In this document: one piece after another, positions 3 to 23,098 of the stretch
Numbering within the stretch: position 1 is the first letter of the stretch
How the letters are laid out: the number at the start of each line of letters is the position of its first letter
From: an uncultured Gammaproteobacteria bacterium
Lineage (GTDB): Bacteria; Patescibacteriota; Patescibacteriia; UBA1558; 2-01-FULL-52-15
Assembly (NCBI GenBank): GCA_964402565.1
Contig: CAYOCJ010000001.1
Coordinates: 504,802 to 568,801, forward strand
Length of the DNA stretch: 64,000 nucleotides
Reading direction: 5' to 3'
Program-made: the position numbers and the translations under genes
The notes under the pieces: generated by a model
Seen by the model: the letters and a program-made list of their open reading frames with translations, nothing else
The model's database searches: none
Told to the model about the DNA's origin: nothing

Positions 3-1049
3 GAAAATTCCGTAACCTCAGTTGTCAAAAAATCCAATCCAGCGGTCGTATCCATTATCATCAGCAAAGATGTCCCGGTGATGGAACAGTATTATGATCA
101 ACAGCCGTCTGATCCGTTCGGTGATTTTTTTGGACCCTTCAATCTGCAAATACCTCAGTACCGGCAAAATGGGACTCAGAAGCAGGAGGTCGGCGGAGGA
201 TCGGGGTTCTTTGTTTCTGATGATGGCATGATCATTACAAATAAACACGTCGTTGATCAAACTGACGCTCAGTACACCGTATTTACCAATGATGGGAAAA
301 AATTCGATGCTGAGGTCATAGCACGCGATCCCGTCAATGATCTTGCAGTTCTGAAAGTTAAAGGCAGCGGTTTTCCGTATCTTACGTTCGGTAATTCTGA
401 TTCCATCCAAGTCGGGCAAACAGCTATCGCCATCGGAAACGCGCTTGGTGAATTCCGCAATACGGTTTCCGTTGGTGTTATCTCAGGCCTTTCTCGCTCA
501 ATTACTGCCGGCGACACCAGCGGCAAAAGCGAGCTGTTGGAAGGAATAATCCAGACAGATGCTGCCATCAATCCCGGGAATTCTGGCGGACCTTTGCTTG
601 ATCTTTCCGGAGATGTCGTTGGCGTGAACGTTGCAATTGCACAAGGGTCTCAAAGCGTGGGTTTTGCTATTCCAAGCAAGATCGCACAAGGCGTCGTCGA
701 GTCGGTGAAAAAAACCGGCAAAATAGTCCGGCCATTCCTCGGCGTCAGGTATATACCGGTGACCAAGGAATTAAAGGATGCGAATAAACTCACTGTTGAT
801 TATGGAGTTCTAATACAGCGTGGTTCGAACGCCGATGAGTTAGCCATCATCCCGGGCAGTCCTGCAGATAAGGCCGGGCTTCAGGAGAATGACATTATTC
901 TTGAAATGGACGGTCTGAAACTTGATGATTCGCACTCGTTAGCGACCTTGGTTAGAAATAAAGCGGTAGGAGACACAATAACCCTAAAAATACTGCATAA
1001 AGGGGACGAGAAGACTGTATCAGTTAAACTTGAGGAAGCAAAGGAATAA
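3..1049 (+). CDS. htrA: HtrA/DegP-family serine protease with C-terminal PDZ domain; 5'-truncated by the window edge (frame open from nt 3)
   Basis: Trypsin-like core with GNSGGPL catalytic-Ser motif, HVV His region and D-L-A-V-L-K Asp region. C-terminal PDZ-like segment (IIPGSPADKAGLQENDIIL). The frame is open upstream of the track's Met back to nt 3 (ENSVTSVVKKSNPAVVSIII). Confidence 0.85.
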   Translation, partial: ENSVTSVVKKSNPAVVSIIISKDVPVMEQYYDQQPSDPFGDFFGPFNLQIPQYRQNGTQKQEVGGGSGFFVSDDGMIITNKHVVDQTDAQYTVFTNDGKKFDAEVIARDPVNDLAVLKVKGSGFPYLTFGNSDSIQVGQTAIAIGNALGEFRNTVSVGVISGLSRSITAGDTSGKSELLEGIIQTDAAINPGNSGGPLLDLSGDVVGVNVAIAQGSQSVGFAIPSKIAQGVVESVKKTGKIVRPFLGVRYIPVTKELKDANKLTVDYGVLIQRGSNADELAIIPGSPADKAGLQENDIILEMDGLKLDDSHSLATLVRNKAVGDTITLKILHKGDEKTVSVKLEEAKE

Positions 1050-19592: not shown

Positions 19593-19630
19593 AAAATCAC
19601 CCCGACCAACGTCGGGGTGATTTTTTCTTT
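19593..19630. terminator. Bidirectional rho-independent terminator between convergent genes
   Basis: aaaatcaccccgac-caac-gtcggggtgatttt hairpin with T-runs on both strands. Confidence 0.7.
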
Positions 19631-19635
19631 GTCCG

Positions 19636-20094
19636 CTACAATGTTTCGTCAACTCCTTGGCCAGTACTATCTTCTGCTATTGGTGTAACCTTGCAGGCCT
19701 TGCGGTCAGCGGTGAACTGTCTCCACGAGGCATGCTTCGCGTCGCGGAACGTTTTGCGTATGGTTCGCACTGAATCCCGGTAATTCTTCCAGGCAGCCTT
19801 CAATGCTGCTCTGCGCGCAACCTTATCAGTAATGCCCCAGGCAGTAACCAGGGCATTCTTTCGCGTCATCAGAGCTGTCTTTATCGCTGCACTATAGGTA
19901 TCTAAAGCCGATATAATGGCAGTGTCACGCTTTTCAACAGCTGCTTGAATGCATGCAGGATCAAACGGAGGATTGGTATTCGTATTGATCGGGGGCAAAT
20001 CGATCGAAACTTGGGCTCTTCCTACGGATACAGGTGAGAACAACAAGGTTCCTAGGACCGCAAAAAAAGCTAACATGCTGACAATTTTCTTCAT
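19636..20094 (-). CDS. Secreted hypothetical protein (signal peptide, alpha-helical, Lys/Arg-rich)
   Basis: Signal peptide FFAVLGTLLFSPVSVGRA. No known motif. Confidence 0.5.
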   Translation of the reverse strand: MKKIVSMLAFFAVLGTLLFSPVSVGRAQVSIDLPPINTNTNPPFDPACIQAAVEKRDTAIISALDTYSAAIKTALMTRKNALVTAWGITDKVARRAALKAAWKNYRDSVRTIRKTFRDAKHASWRQFTADRKACKVTPIAEDSTGQGVDETL

Positions 20095-20220
20095 AGAATT
20101 ATTATGGTTAATAGTTTTGGAGAGTTCGACGAGGCTCTACATACTGATGACGTATCCAAGATATTTTCTTTCAAGTCGAACTATAGTATAGCACAAAACA
20201 ACAGTTTCTATGCAATTGAC

Positions 20221-20399
20221 GGGGGCTGTTGACTTGTGATCGGCACAAGCAGTAAGGTCGAATTGCAGGTCGGATGCCGCAATCCTGGCTTACAAGATGC
20301 GGGTCGTCAGAAACGACAACGAAAGGAGATAACTCTTGGATACGTTCGACTTGTAGTGGGGCAGGCCCTTTTCGAAGGACACTGCCCCTTCCACTTTTT
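20221..20399 (+). ncRNA. Candidate small structured RNA of unknown family (GC-rich, multi-hairpin, ends in an intrinsic terminator)
   Basis: About 180 nt and GC-rich relative to its flanks. It contains a series of hairpins (cuugug-AUCGGC-acaag; guaagg...cuuac; gucg-ucagaaa-cgac). It ends with ggggcag-N17-ctgcccc + ttccacttttt, which is a terminator only on the plus strand, and no plus-strand CDS precedes it. It could not be matched to tmRNA, SRP RNA, RNase P or 6S by eye. Confidence 0.3.
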
Positions 20400-20408
20400 A
20401 AAGCCCTA

Positions 20409-21740
20409 TTAATCCACTGATCCTGAAAACATCGGTATCCCTAAACGCCGCCGTTTCGTCTCATCCTTGAATAATTGGGTCATGCGCCTCGGCGCATCGC
20501 CCCGTGCACCCAAATGTTGAGAAAAATTATGTGCCTGAAAGCTCGAGGCAAGATACACCACATGCTTCCCGTAATAGCCCGCGAGCTCATCCATGCCTTT
20601 ATATACATAGGATAATTTCTCAGCGCGCACGCTGGCGCCGAATAGATCCATCTGATGCACATCATCAGTAGTCAAATCCAATAGAACCACGCCGGTCATA
20701 CGGTAGCGGAGCGTCGGGTCAAAAAAATCATCAAAAGAATCTTCAAGAACCTTAATGATCTCATTTGGATACGCGCTTGCCCGCGTTAGTTTCGCTGATA
20801 TGGCATATTCCTTGAATTCCTGAGTTCTCAATACGAAAACTACTTCTTTAGCAGCCTGATGATGGCGCCGTGCTTTAATACAGGCATTTTCAATGTTCTT
20901 GGACAGTTGCGCGAGCACGAATGTACGCTCGGATGAGGGGGGAGTAAAGGTCTTCATCTTTTGAATAGAATAATATGTTTCATGTTCATCCGTCAGAAGA
21001 CTCATAACTGAGATGCCGTTCAGCTCCTGCCATATCTCAATAAATGGTTTTGAAAAATGTTTCCGCACCCAAGCCTCCGGACGCTCTGCAAAGGCAAGGG
21101 CAGTGGTAATGCCATACTTCGCCAACAGGGCAGTAGTCTGAGGCCCGATGCCCCAAACGTTGCCAGCAGGGAGGTCCCGCAAAAAATCCTGACGGGTCCG
21201 GGCGCTGATAAGCGTCAGGCCATGGGGCTTATTCCACTTTGAAGCAACCTTTGCCAATACCTTGGTTGGCGCAAGGCCGATGGAAAAAGTAAAACCAAGC
21301 TCGCGCGTCAGGTCGCTATCGATCTTTTCAGCGATCTGGCGATAGGAACTATGCAATGGCCTTCGCATACCGGTAATGTCCGCGAAGCACTCGTCGATCC
21401 CGTACTCTTCGAGGTCCGAGGTATAACGGCGCACAATGCTATAAAATCGTTTCGAAAGGAGACTATAGGTCTCATAATCAGACGGTATGATGATCACCTG
21501 TGGAATAAGTTTTTTGATCTCAGCAAGGCTCATGCCGCGAGTAGCGCCTTGTGCTTTTGCCTCATAGCTGATGCTTGAAGCAATACCGCGTTCTTTGCCG
21601 GTGACGACCGGCTTGCCTTTCAATTTGAAGTTCAGGGACTGCTCGCAGGACGCAAAAAAAGCATCTCCATCGATATGGAGAATCGCGCGCGGGAATGACG
21701 AATGTGCTCCAAATGGCATACGATCAATATTTACGGACAA
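20409..21740 (-). CDS. dinB: Y-family DNA polymerase (DNA polymerase IV / DinB-UmuC family)
   Basis: N-terminal ILHIDGDAFFASCEQ (the Y-family catalytic DxD/FF motif). The UmuC-like core overlaps the lexA stop by 17 nt. Confidence 0.88.
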   Translation of the reverse strand: MSVNIDRMPFGAHSSFPRAILHIDGDAFFASCEQSLNFKLKGKPVVTGKERGIASSISYEAKAQGATRGMSLAEIKKLIPQVIIIPSDYETYSLLSKRFYSIVRRYTSDLEEYGIDECFADITGMRRPLHSSYRQIAEKIDSDLTRELGFTFSIGLAPTKVLAKVASKWNKPHGLTLISARTRQDFLRDLPAGNVWGIGPQTTALLAKYGITTALAFAERPEAWVRKHFSKPFIEIWQELNGISVMSLLTDEHETYYSIQKMKTFTPPSSERTFVLAQLSKNIENACIKARRHHQAAKEVVFVLRTQEFKEYAISAKLTRASAYPNEIIKVLEDSFDDFFDPTLRYRMTGVVLLDLTTDDVHQMDLFGASVRAEKLSYVYKGMDELAGYYGKHVVYLASSFQAHNFSQHLGARGDAPRRMTQLFKDETKRRRLGIPMFSGSVD

Positions 21741-22290
21741 CCGCTTTCACGATCGCTGCGATCTTAAGCTCATCTTTCGGCACAATGGGCGGATACTTTG
21801 GGTTACCAGGCTGCAGCCATGTCTTGCCTTTTTCTTTACGCAAATACTTCATGGTCCAGCCAGTGTCTATTTCAGCAATAACGATATCGCCATCACGAGC
21901 ATCGCTGCGCCGCTCGACCAAAACCATATCACCCGGCATGATGCCTGCCTCGATCATTGAATCGCCTGATACTTTAAGAAGATAGGTTGCATCGCGATGT
22001 TCTATCAAATACTCATCCAGGCTCATAGTATCCGTAAGCTCTTCTTCAGCAGGGGACGGAAAGCCAGCTTCGACAGCACCCAAAAGAGAAATAGACCCCA
22101 TGAGCTTATTGGGGATAAGTTTACCCTTCGCATCCTTGCTCAATATGCCCTCAGAAAGGTAGTTCCTAACCAATTTATAGGCCGAATTCTTTGATTTAAA
22201 GCCCATTAGACGCATGATCTCAGCATAACTGGGCATCCGACGGTTCTGCCTATAAAAATCGTTTATTTTGTGAATTCTTGAAATGGCCAT
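21724..22290 (-). CDS. lexA: LexA repressor (wHTH + S24 peptidase)
   Basis: N-terminal winged HTH (YAEIMRLMGFKSKNSAYKLVRNYL). S24 Ser-Lys dyad context (KVSGDSMIEAGI ... K). The start was trimmed to MAISRIHK at 22290, because the track's upstream TTG start lies inside the -35 box. Confidence 0.85.
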   Translation of the reverse strand: MAISRIHKINDFYRQNRRMPSYAEIMRLMGFKSKNSAYKLVRNYLSEGILSKDAKGKLIPNKLMGSISLLGAVEAGFPSPAEEELTDTMSLDEYLIEHRDATYLLKVSGDSMIEAGIMPGDMVLVERRSDARDGDIVIAEIDTGWTMKYLRKEKGKTWLQPGNPKYPPIVPKDELKIAAIVKAVVRKY

Positions 22291-22296
22291 AGATAT

Positions 22297-22326
22297 AGTA
22301 TAGGTGAACGTTCGTTCACCTGTCAA
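22297..22326 (-). promoter_or_regulatory. lexA promoter: -35 TTGACA, 18-nt spacer, -10 TATACT; transcript probably leaderless or with a very short leader
   Basis: Minus strand reads TTGACA-ggtgaacgaacgttcacc-TATACT. The ATG lies 7 nt after the -10. Confidence 0.6.
22302..22321. promoter_or_regulatory. LexA operator (SOS box): 20-bp near-perfect palindrome AGGTGAACGTTCGTTCACCT, GAAC-N4-GTTC (Cheo-box) type
   Basis: 9-bp inverted arms. It is located exactly in the lexA promoter spacer. The GAAC-N4-GTTC core matches Gram-positive LexA boxes. Confidence 0.7.
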
Positions 22327-22372
22327 ATGCCAGGCCTTAGCAAAGGGTTTTTACTTTTTCACTGATAGAGAA

Positions 22373-23098
22373 TCAGATCTTTTCAGCACAGACGATCAGG
22401 GAGAGTCCAATGAGGGGACTCAGAATGCCGTTCATCAGTTGAGCAAGCGGCAGCATCTGTTCATACAGCTTTACGCCAGAACGGGGGATGCTTGTTTTCT
22501 GGGCTATACCACCCATGAACGCCCAGCCAGGTATGCCGAATGGATTAAAGTAGCGAACGCTGAGGGGTTTCATAGAGTGCCTGGTGACCAGATCAATGCA
22601 TGATTGTTTCGTATATCTGCGTTCATGGCCGAGAGCCTTGTCGAGATGATTAAAAAGCATAGGCAGCGCAGGAACGAATAGCACAATGCGGCCACCAGGT
22701 TTCAGTAATGATCGCATGCTTTCGACAGCAATATCATGATGACGGATATGCTCGAGAACATTGATCGCAAAGATACTGTCAATAGTTCCTTGCAGCCCTT
22801 GGACTGCCGAACCGGCCGCATCGAGCGGCACATTCAAATCAATACGATGTGAGCCGAGATAATTTGGATTCCCCCGGAAGCGCTTATCAAGATCATCGCA
22901 GTAGACCATTTCATAATCGCTCAAAAAACAACGAAACTCCTTAAGCGCCAACTCTGAAAAGGTGCCGGTCCCGCTGCCGAATTCAAAAACTGTCCCTTTC
23001 AGAAATGGCCGTATAGCGCTATACATCCACTGGTTCAGCTTGTGAGCGTCTCCCAAGGTTTCAAGCGTCGTGTGGCCGGTATATTCGAAATGCTCCAT
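22373..23098 (-). CDS. Class I SAM-dependent methyltransferase (small-molecule/protein MTase type)
   Basis: Motif I VFEFGSGTGTFS and motif post-I/II spacing typical of Methyltransf_11/23. Confidence 0.7.
   Translation of the reverse strand: MEHFEYTGHTTLETLGDAHKLNQWMYSAIRPFLKGTVFEFGSGTGTFSELALKEFRCFLSDYEMVYCDDLDKRFRGNPNYLGSHRIDLNVPLDAAGSAVQGLQGTIDSIFAINVLEHIRHHDIAVESMRSLLKPGGRIVLFVPALPMLFNHLDKALGHERRYTKQSCIDLVTRHSMKPLSVRYFNPFGIPGWAFMGGIAQKTSIPRSGVKLYEQMLPLAQLMNGILSPLIGLSLIVCAEKI

Follow-up and report, generated by a model that had tools for sequence, protein, structure and literature searches.

The gap at positions 20095-20408 of the 64-kb window analysed here (the whole stretch of 64,000 nucleotides, contig CAYOCJ010000001.1) lies between two minus-strand genes and probably, with a likelihood that we put at about 70%, contains an independently transcribed gene for a small non-coding RNA (sRNA) on the plus strand. 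The putative gene is a candidate for a new RNA family, divergent from a gene for a 152-amino-acid (152-aa) protein on one side and apparently independent of the polymerase gene dinB on the other. An initial annotation of the DNA had proposed, in its core, an independent and structured plus-strand sRNA with a terminator and without a known family; this proposal gained partial support from a conserved promoter, a four-way fold, a strand asymmetry, and the lack of a conserved open reading frame (ORF).

The comparisons were made with four distinct sequences, two of which are 87% identical, namely those of the window and of the related metagenomic contigs L082, L084, and L085 (L086 is identical to L085). 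They are referred to below as the four homologues. In the model that we propose, a sigma-70-type promoter (-35 box at 20229-20234, -10 box at 20253-20258, and an extra TTGAC 13 nt upstream) would start transcription near 20264, and transcription would stop at the P5 hairpin and the U-run (20358-20399), giving a product of ~137 nt. The 5' end of this RNA would pair with 20343-20355 to form the 13-bp helix P1, which would close a four-way junction and be followed by P5 and a UUCCAC tail. The features of the predicted gene are as follows.

20216-20220, plus strand: upstream box of a direct TTGAC repeat whose two copies start 13 nt apart; all four homologues contain ATTGAC-N8-TTGAC
20221-20228, plus strand: spacer GGGGGCTG between the TTGAC boxes, upstream of the -35 and -10 boxes; the relatives have ACACTGTA, AAAGATAC, and AGAACTAC
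20229-20234, plus strand: predicted -35 box of the sRNA, TTGACT; the four homologues read TTGAC[TA], with constant spacing from P1
20253-20258, plus strand: -10 box TAAGGT, 18 nt past the -35 box, predicted from conservation; TAGGTT in L082, TAAGTT in L085, and CAAATT in L084
~20264-20399, plus strand: predicted sRNA transcript of ~137 nt; covariance models match 20263-20394 and 20259-20401
20264-20276, plus strand: 5' strand of P1 (UGCAGGUCGGAUG) with the invariant GUCGGAU; pairs with 20343-20355 as a 13-bp closing helix
20277-20302, plus strand: P2 hairpin; same position in all four homologues, with differing sequences
20303-20317, plus strand: P3 hairpin GUCGU-CAGAA-ACGAC; a U-A pair is C-G in L084, and L085 has a 7-bp stem
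20321-20328, plus strand: Shine-Dalgarno-like GAAAGGAG across J3/4 and the 5' strand of P4; present in the window, L084, and L085, with GAAAGGGG in L082
20324-20337, plus strand: P4 hairpin AGGAG-AUAA-CUCUU; position kept in all four homologues, longer in L082 and L085
20338-20342, plus strand: J4/1 linker GGAUA; together with the next base GGAUAC, GGAUAC, GGAAAC, and GCAAAC in the four homologues
20343-20355, plus strand: 3' strand of P1 (CGUUCGACUUGUA) with the invariant YCGACU; pairs with 20264-20276
20358-20388, plus strand: P5, a 12-bp terminal hairpin with a UUCG loop, which is also the terminator stem; hairpins of 11-15 bp in all four homologues, with differing sequences
20389-20399, plus strand: 3' tail, UUCCAC plus a U-run; [AU]UCCA follows P5 in all four homologues

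Predicted promoter, terminator, and fold of the sRNA

All four homologues contained TTGAC[TA] followed, after 17-18 nt, by a TAnnnT-type hexamer that ends 8-10 nt ahead of the invariant GTCGGAT. In the window, the conserved span reads TTGAC-N8-TTGACT, 18 nt, and TAAGGT (20216-20258, plus strand). The conservation of these hexamers suggests that the sRNA has its own promoter directly upstream. In the initial annotation, the RNA was thought to start with GGGGGCUG, as tmRNA (transfer-messenger RNA) and 4.5S RNA do. This start had to be given up, as 20221-20228 is the non-conserved promoter spacer between the two TTGAC boxes; since GGGGGCTG would be promoter spacer DNA and the relatives have unrelated octamers in its place, the resemblance to tmRNA and 4.5S RNA is presumably spurious.

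The terminator described in the initial annotation was confirmed. GGGGCAG (20358-20364) and CTGCCCC (20382-20388) are followed by TTCCACTTTTT, that is, TTCCAC and TTTTT (20395-20399), and the plus strand alone gave a signal in the terminator scan; read on the minus strand, the hairpin has no U-run after it. The RNA itself, which had been estimated to be ~180 nt long, is now predicted to be ~137 nt (~20264-20399), and its length ranges from 137 to 168 nt across the four homologues. Past the tail, a U-run is present in the window and L084, and a separate small terminator (a GGCC hairpin plus U6) is present in L082. The element had also been described as more GC-rich than its flanks. This holds on the AT-rich left side, where the GC content is 0.34 (20095-20220) vs 0.52 in the element (20221-20399), but not on the right, where the coding flank is about equal (0.49 in the coding flanks).

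P1 closes a four-way junction of P2-P4, and the same architecture was obtained in independent minimum-free-energy folds of all four homologues. Conservation was concentrated in the core of P1 (GUCGGAU/YCGACU), the junction strands (GAAAGGAG and GGAUAC), and the tail (UCCA), and the hairpin loops were not conserved. This distribution favours a folded junction that is recognised by a partner. The partner might be a protein, the ribosome via the perfect anti-anti-Shine-Dalgarno sequence GAAAGGAG, or a ligand, and the single-stranded GAAAGGAG and the C/U-rich tail might add base-pairing contacts; our certainty about both of these steps is low. A classic antisense sRNA with a seed in a loop would fit less well. 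A conserved pseudoknot between the UCCA tail and UGGA was considered and rejected, since UGGA[AU] occurs in each RNA but at differing places.

The plus strand of 20221-20400 folded more stably than shuffled sequences (z = -3.6). For the refined RNA, the z values of the plus and minus strands were -4.7 and -3.9 in the window, and -2.9 and -1.6, -5.6 and -3.8, and -5.5 and -4.9 in the other three homologues; the plus strand had the lower free energy and the more negative z in all four. Model R1, a covariance model of the window and L084 sequences, found L082 at E = 1e-8, and L085 came out top among its weak matches; another model (R2) was trained on the four sequences. In the four-sequence alignment, 79% of the cells were paired vs 34-48% when the partners were slid, a comparison of low power owing to the few sequences. 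The covariation score of the same four sequences was 0.321 vs 0.233 in shuffles, and this value was reached in 2 of 500 shuffles. P1 alone had 92% of its cells paired, with changes on one side as well as on both sides. A manual structural alignment made helix by helix, which leans toward structure, gave 93% pairing with double changes in every helix, and 20 of its cells were G.U on the plus strand, which would be C.A mismatches on the minus strand. In the covariation analysis across relatives that had been suggested as a check, pairing of 79-93% and double changes per helix are consistent with structure, in four sequences of which two are 87% identical, too few for statistical power.

Several points weigh against the proposed sRNA gene. 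The -10 box is weak (three of six matches), and for this reason the generic promoter scan made no call. L085 has no U-run terminator, and nothing obvious lies past its tail. The comparison set comprises only four distinct sequences with two at 87% identity, which leaves the covariation with low statistical power, and related sequences alone can exceed the shuffle control. The alignment by MAFFT and the covariance model misaligns the variable hairpins of L082 and L085, and the manual alignment favours structure. Finally, model R2 matched only its four training sequences across ~750 kb of related loci. Taken together, the evidence on structure and strand is consistent with a folded plus-strand RNA, though not statistically decisive.

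The genes on both sides of the element and the features in the left part of the gap, which are needed for the comparison of loci, are as follows.

19636-20094, minus strand: gene for a 152-aa hypothetical secreted-type protein, divergent from the putative sRNA; no Pfam hit
20150-20181 (20150-20161 and 20172-20181), strand not applicable: left arms of two inverted repeats specific to the window; the right arms, at 20334-20353, lie inside the sRNA
20185-20193, minus strand: predicted extended -10 box TGCTATACT of the 152-aa gene; AGTATAGCA or AGTATACCA on the plus strand in all four loci
20409-21719, minus strand: dinB, a Y-family DNA polymerase gene (DinB/UmuC-like; Pfam IMS and IMS_C)

The closest DinB, with 80% identity, was encoded on L082, a 2.2-kb contig with a syntenic gap of 322 nt that contains a partly conserved element. 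Searches of 80 genome loci with a 56-66% identical DinB, made with blastn, nhmmer, motifs, and a covariance model, detected no homologue of the element. The homologues in L082, L084, and L085 have the same placement relative to the 152-aa gene, and on the other side the element is adjoined by XerC in L085 and by a methyltransferase in L084, both of which lack dinB there. As the element is kept in L084 and L085 without dinB, it appears to travel with the divergent 152-aa gene, independently of dinB; a linkage to dinB was ruled out on these grounds and on the result for the 80 DinB loci. A search with the 152-aa protein yielded only three other homologue clusters among 5.8 billion proteins. The two closer clusters (L084 and L085) have the sRNA upstream, and the element is absent upstream of a 49%-identical homologue (locus L087).

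A second copy of the element was found neither in the 64-kb window nor at the 80 dinB loci. Pattern scans returned 3 matches in metagenome contigs and 17 in viral contigs, all of which were chance matches, none of them matching model R2. The putative sRNA family is so far restricted to four contigs of one Patescibacteria lineage. Judged from these comparisons, it is most likely a previously uncatalogued sRNA that is shared only by a few close relatives of an uncultured groundwater-type bacterium.

Known RNA families and alternative explanations

The placement of the element outside known families, which the initial annotation had anticipated, held in Rfam and ARAGORN tests that covered six to eleven related loci. 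At gathering thresholds, cmscan against Rfam matched no family, whether in the 64-kb window or at six related loci, and at E <= 10 the local region gave only chance matches, which involved either the terminator hairpin or a hairpin plus AAGGAG. ARAGORN detected no tRNA or tmRNA genes in the window or the six related loci. The likeness to tmRNA and to 4.5S RNA of the signal recognition particle (SRP) consists only of the octamer GGGGGCUG (20221-20228) and a CCA-containing tail after a GC-rich hairpin. As candidate identities, both were rejected: tmRNA had no ARAGORN or Rfam match and no T-arm or tag reading frame, and 4.5S/SRP RNA had no Rfam SRP match (at the gathering threshold or E <= 10) and no domain IV motif.

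Trans-encoded sRNAs with their own promoter and intrinsic terminator include the csRNAs of streptococci and the RsaE-type sRNAs of Firmicutes. The predicted RNA resembles this generic type in being a stand-alone intergenic gene of ~140 nt with a sigma-70-type promoter, a terminal hairpin plus U-run, and no conserved ORF. A C/U-rich single-stranded stretch near the 3' end and distant relatives with tandem units at the locus add to the likeness. In contrast, it resembles none of the Rfam sRNA families in sequence or by covariance model, its conserved positions lie in P1 and the junction strands instead of the loops, and a core with a four-way junction is unusual for base-pairing sRNAs. A search of one literature collection found nothing on sRNAs of the Candidate Phyla Radiation (CPR) that resemble this RNA.

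A sub-threshold match to the NiCo riboswitch (RF02683), with 24.6 bits vs a gathering threshold of 37, was obtained in L084 only. Like the NiCo (czcD) aptamer, the predicted RNA has a four-way junction of ~100 nt followed by a terminator hairpin, as well as a GGGACAG-like stretch; near the boundary of P2 and P3, L084 has CGGGCCG...CGGCA and the window has GCGGGUCG...CGACA. However, the junction strands measure 0/0/6/5 nt in the sRNA vs 1/2/1/2 nt in NiCo, and no metal-efflux gene (czcD-type) or any other same-strand gene lies downstream, the next genes (dinB, XerC, or methyltransferase) being on the opposite strand. Membership in NiCo was rejected, since the alignment recruits nucleotides upstream of the predicted start and breaks the covariation-supported P1, and since the other homologues were unmatched: no NiCo match was seen at E <= 10 in the window, L082, or L086.

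A cis element of this general kind is an unlikely alternative to the sRNA gene. In such a riboswitch-like element or attenuator, a ligand, or a ribosome on a mini-ORF behind GAAAGGAG-UUG, would set the read-through of P5 and thereby the amount of antisense RNA running into the convergent gene. Besides the NiCo match in L084, the conservation of junction strands in place of loops and the position of P1 immediately ahead of the terminator hairpin are in line with it. So is the Shine-Dalgarno-like box followed by UUG 5-7 nt on in all four homologues, with a frame of 6-7 codons that stops 0-1 nt before P5 in three of them. Nevertheless, no locus has a same-strand gene downstream, and the convergent gene varies among dinB, methyltransferase, and XerC. 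There is no overlap between P1 and P5 and no evident antiterminator pairing. Moreover, the peptides of the mini-ORFs are unrelated, and the frame of L082 runs for 33 codons through the terminator.

The structure could also belong to the minus strand, as a structured 3' untranslated region (UTR) of dinB (a processing or stability hairpin) or as a long 5' leader of the 152-aa gene. The minus strand likewise folded better than shuffles (z = -3.5 to -5.1). The terminator scan found no intrinsic terminator of dinB's own, so read-through from dinB is plausible, and the inverted repeats specific to the window could pair over a long range in such a transcript. We nonetheless regard a minus-strand element as very unlikely. 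The 20 G.U cells of the plus strand would turn into C.A on the minus strand, the plus strand is the more stable one in all four homologues, and the element persists where dinB is missing. The TTGAC and TAnnnT boxes and the U-runs are signals only on the plus strand. In addition, the extended -10 box of the 152-aa gene (20185-20193) lies downstream of the element on the minus strand, so the leader need not contain the element.

The inverted 10-mers reported in the initial annotation are indeed present. They are perfect at 20150-20161/20334-20345 (12 nt) and 20172-20181/20344-20353 (10 nt), in swapped order, and two such repeats arose in only 2 of 1000 dinucleotide-type shuffles, so they are non-random. 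The right arms coincide with the 3' strand of P4, J4/1, and the 3' strand of P1, and the left arms fall within the region of the promoter and 5' UTR of the 152-aa gene, shortly downstream of its extended -10 box. As the left arms are in this region, the leader of the 152-aa mRNA here carries same-sense copies of two segments of the sRNA. The repeats are not, however, a conserved part of the RNA: they are absent from L082, L084, and L085, where the RNA fold is kept, and thus represent a lineage-specific feature of this genome. They might mean that the leader mimics a target, that a long-range helix forms in RNA reading through from dinB, or that the DNA was recently rearranged.

These repeats could be taken to indicate a feature of the DNA itself, for instance a segment that inverts or moves and has them as its inverted repeats, or a hotspot of recombination beside an XerC-type recombinase. 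The genes past the element's 3' end, which vary between relatives (methyltransferase-LexA-DinB in one, methyltransferase plus an extra RNA in another, XerC directly in a third), point the same way. This explanation is highly improbable. The fold is kept in the three relatives without the repeats, no second copy exists in the 64-kb window or the 80 dinB loci, compensatory changes in internal hairpins would be unexpected for a recombination site, and the changing neighbours are in keeping with an RNA gene that marks the boundary of insertions.

The initial annotation had stated that no plus-strand coding sequence precedes the terminator; this is right in that none is conserved in the three relatives, but mechanical ORFs can be read at 20104-20232 (42 aa), where the Logan assembly has a gene call, and at 20236-20412 and 20274-20420 (48 or 58 aa). 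A small protein gene or a dual-function RNA that encodes one of these peptides or that of the 6-aa mini-ORF deserves hardly any credence in spite of the gene call and the strong, conserved Shine-Dalgarno-like GAAAGGAG plus UUG, because the positions, frames, and peptides of the ORFs are unrelated across the four homologues and the corresponding gaps in L082, L084, and L085 were left empty by the gene callers.

Neighbouring genes and distant syntenic loci

In the window, dinB is preceded by genes for a LexA-like S24 peptidase, a methyltransferase, and an XerC-type recombinase. The proteins of this metagenomic contig are encoded in the Logan assembly of SRR12313479 as well as on a 633-kb NCBI contig, and with a Candidatus Komeilibacteria MAG as its nearest named relative, the genome belongs to the Patescibacteria/CPR. 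The gene content beyond the 3' end of the sRNA is variable: XerC, methyltransferase, LexA-like, and DinB genes are found at 20409-23098 of the window, a methyltransferase gene and an extra RNA unit at 1-666 of L084, and XerC directly at 3689-5000 of L085. This region looks like an insertion/deletion hotspot beside a tyrosine recombinase. The extra unit of L084 (~120-320, minus strand), which is in tandem with and downstream of the sRNA, consists of another promoter-like site (TTGACT-16/17-TACTAT), ~165 nt of GC-rich structured sequence, and a hairpin plus U-run, and had no Rfam match. A comparable arrangement was observed beside an XerC-type recombinase gene in L111 (8079-8440, plus strand), where a promoter-like TTGACT...TACTAT is followed by a GC-rich stretch of ~330 nt and a hairpin plus T-run; this may be another unannotated structured RNA.

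The homologues of the DinB-like polymerase with 56-66% identity occurred in metagenome-assembled genomes (MAGs) labelled Patescibacteria, Actinomycetes, Nitrospirales, Acidobacteria, and Deltaproteobacteria, and even in a Bathyarchaeia bin. This spread over phyla suggests that the cassette was transferred horizontally, that it evolves unusually slowly, or that contigs were mis-binned.

The leader of the 152-aa gene (20118-20193, minus strand) contains a conserved ATGACG (20147-20152) and a hairpin AGAG...CTCT (20121-20138), whose loop includes TCGAC in the window, L084, and L085. On the mRNA strand, the loop sequence GUCGAAC is complementary to GUUCGAC in the 3' strand of P1 of the sRNA, over 7 nt in the window and only 4 nt in L084 and L085. 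A duplex between the sRNA and the leader of the 152-aa mRNA was also examined with RNAduplex and set aside, as the long sequences gave unrealistic full-length duplexes that were uninformative. On the other side of the 152-aa gene, a perfect 14-bp hairpin with an A-run on one side and a T-run on the other (19593-19624) lies between this gene and a convergent FKBP gene, a textbook bidirectional intrinsic terminator.

In distant, Komeilibacteria-like relatives, the gene order is DUF4015, FKBP, gap, and dinB, without the 152-aa gene. Their FKBP-dinB gaps contain one to three units on the plus strand (L091 and L112, units 2 and 3 of L002, and L109). Each has a promoter of the form TTGACN-16/18-TAnnnT, a P1 formed by the 5' end and a segment just before a long hairpin (GUCGRA/UYCGAC or UCCGGG/CCCGGA), and a variable core. 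These are followed by the hairpin of 10-15 bp, often with a GGCAG...CUGCC base, a C-rich tail (CCAC..UUUUC), and a separate small terminator. The units thus resemble the sRNA in their locus after FKBP and converging on dinB, in their strand, and in their overall layout. They differ from it in their cores, which are ~70-180 nt long and of other sequence, and in the separate terminator past the tail.

Covariance models R1 and R2 did not detect the distant units, so a homology is suggested by position and layout only. A scan of ~0.9 Mb on both strands for YCG(G)AC, a stem of at least 10 bp, and a CC-tail gave six matches, which were located only in the syntenic gaps and always on the expected strand. 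A covariance model of a 3' module shared by the distant syntenic RNAs was attempted and dropped because the MAFFT alignment was too poor. In one of these loci, the 1.3-kb FKBP-dinB gap of a Komeilibacteria MAG (L002, 1630-2970, minus strand), three units of promoter plus structured RNA stand in tandem, and several copies, in both orientations, of a motif of ~18 nt (CCTCTAACGGGGTTGAC) supply the -35 box.

It is conceivable, although we hold this wider proposal to be speculative and rather doubtful, that the sRNA of the window is the first recognised member of an RNA family that extends through a clade of Patescibacteria (Komeilibacteria-like). Such a family would share the frame of P1 (with a GUCGRA/UYCGAC core), long GGCAG...CUGCC hairpin, and C-rich tail around a fast-evolving junction domain; the conserved four-way junction might then serve as a specific pocket for a protein or a small ligand, and the RNAs would form a new class instead of one more kind of antisense regulator.

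Meaning for RNA biology in Patescibacteria

Very little is known about regulatory RNAs in CPR bacteria, which have tiny genomes and few regulators. The sRNA described here is a solid candidate and not a surprise, since new lineage-specific sRNAs are to be expected in any poorly studied phylum. With its conserved multi-helix core, it would be an sRNA that keeps its locus amid gains and losses of neighbouring genes. If the wider positional family is real, it would point to a rapid turnover of RNAs within a common frame. The sRNA gene itself, if the prediction from promoter to terminator is true, would offer a concrete handle on RNA-based regulation in uncultured CPR bacteria.

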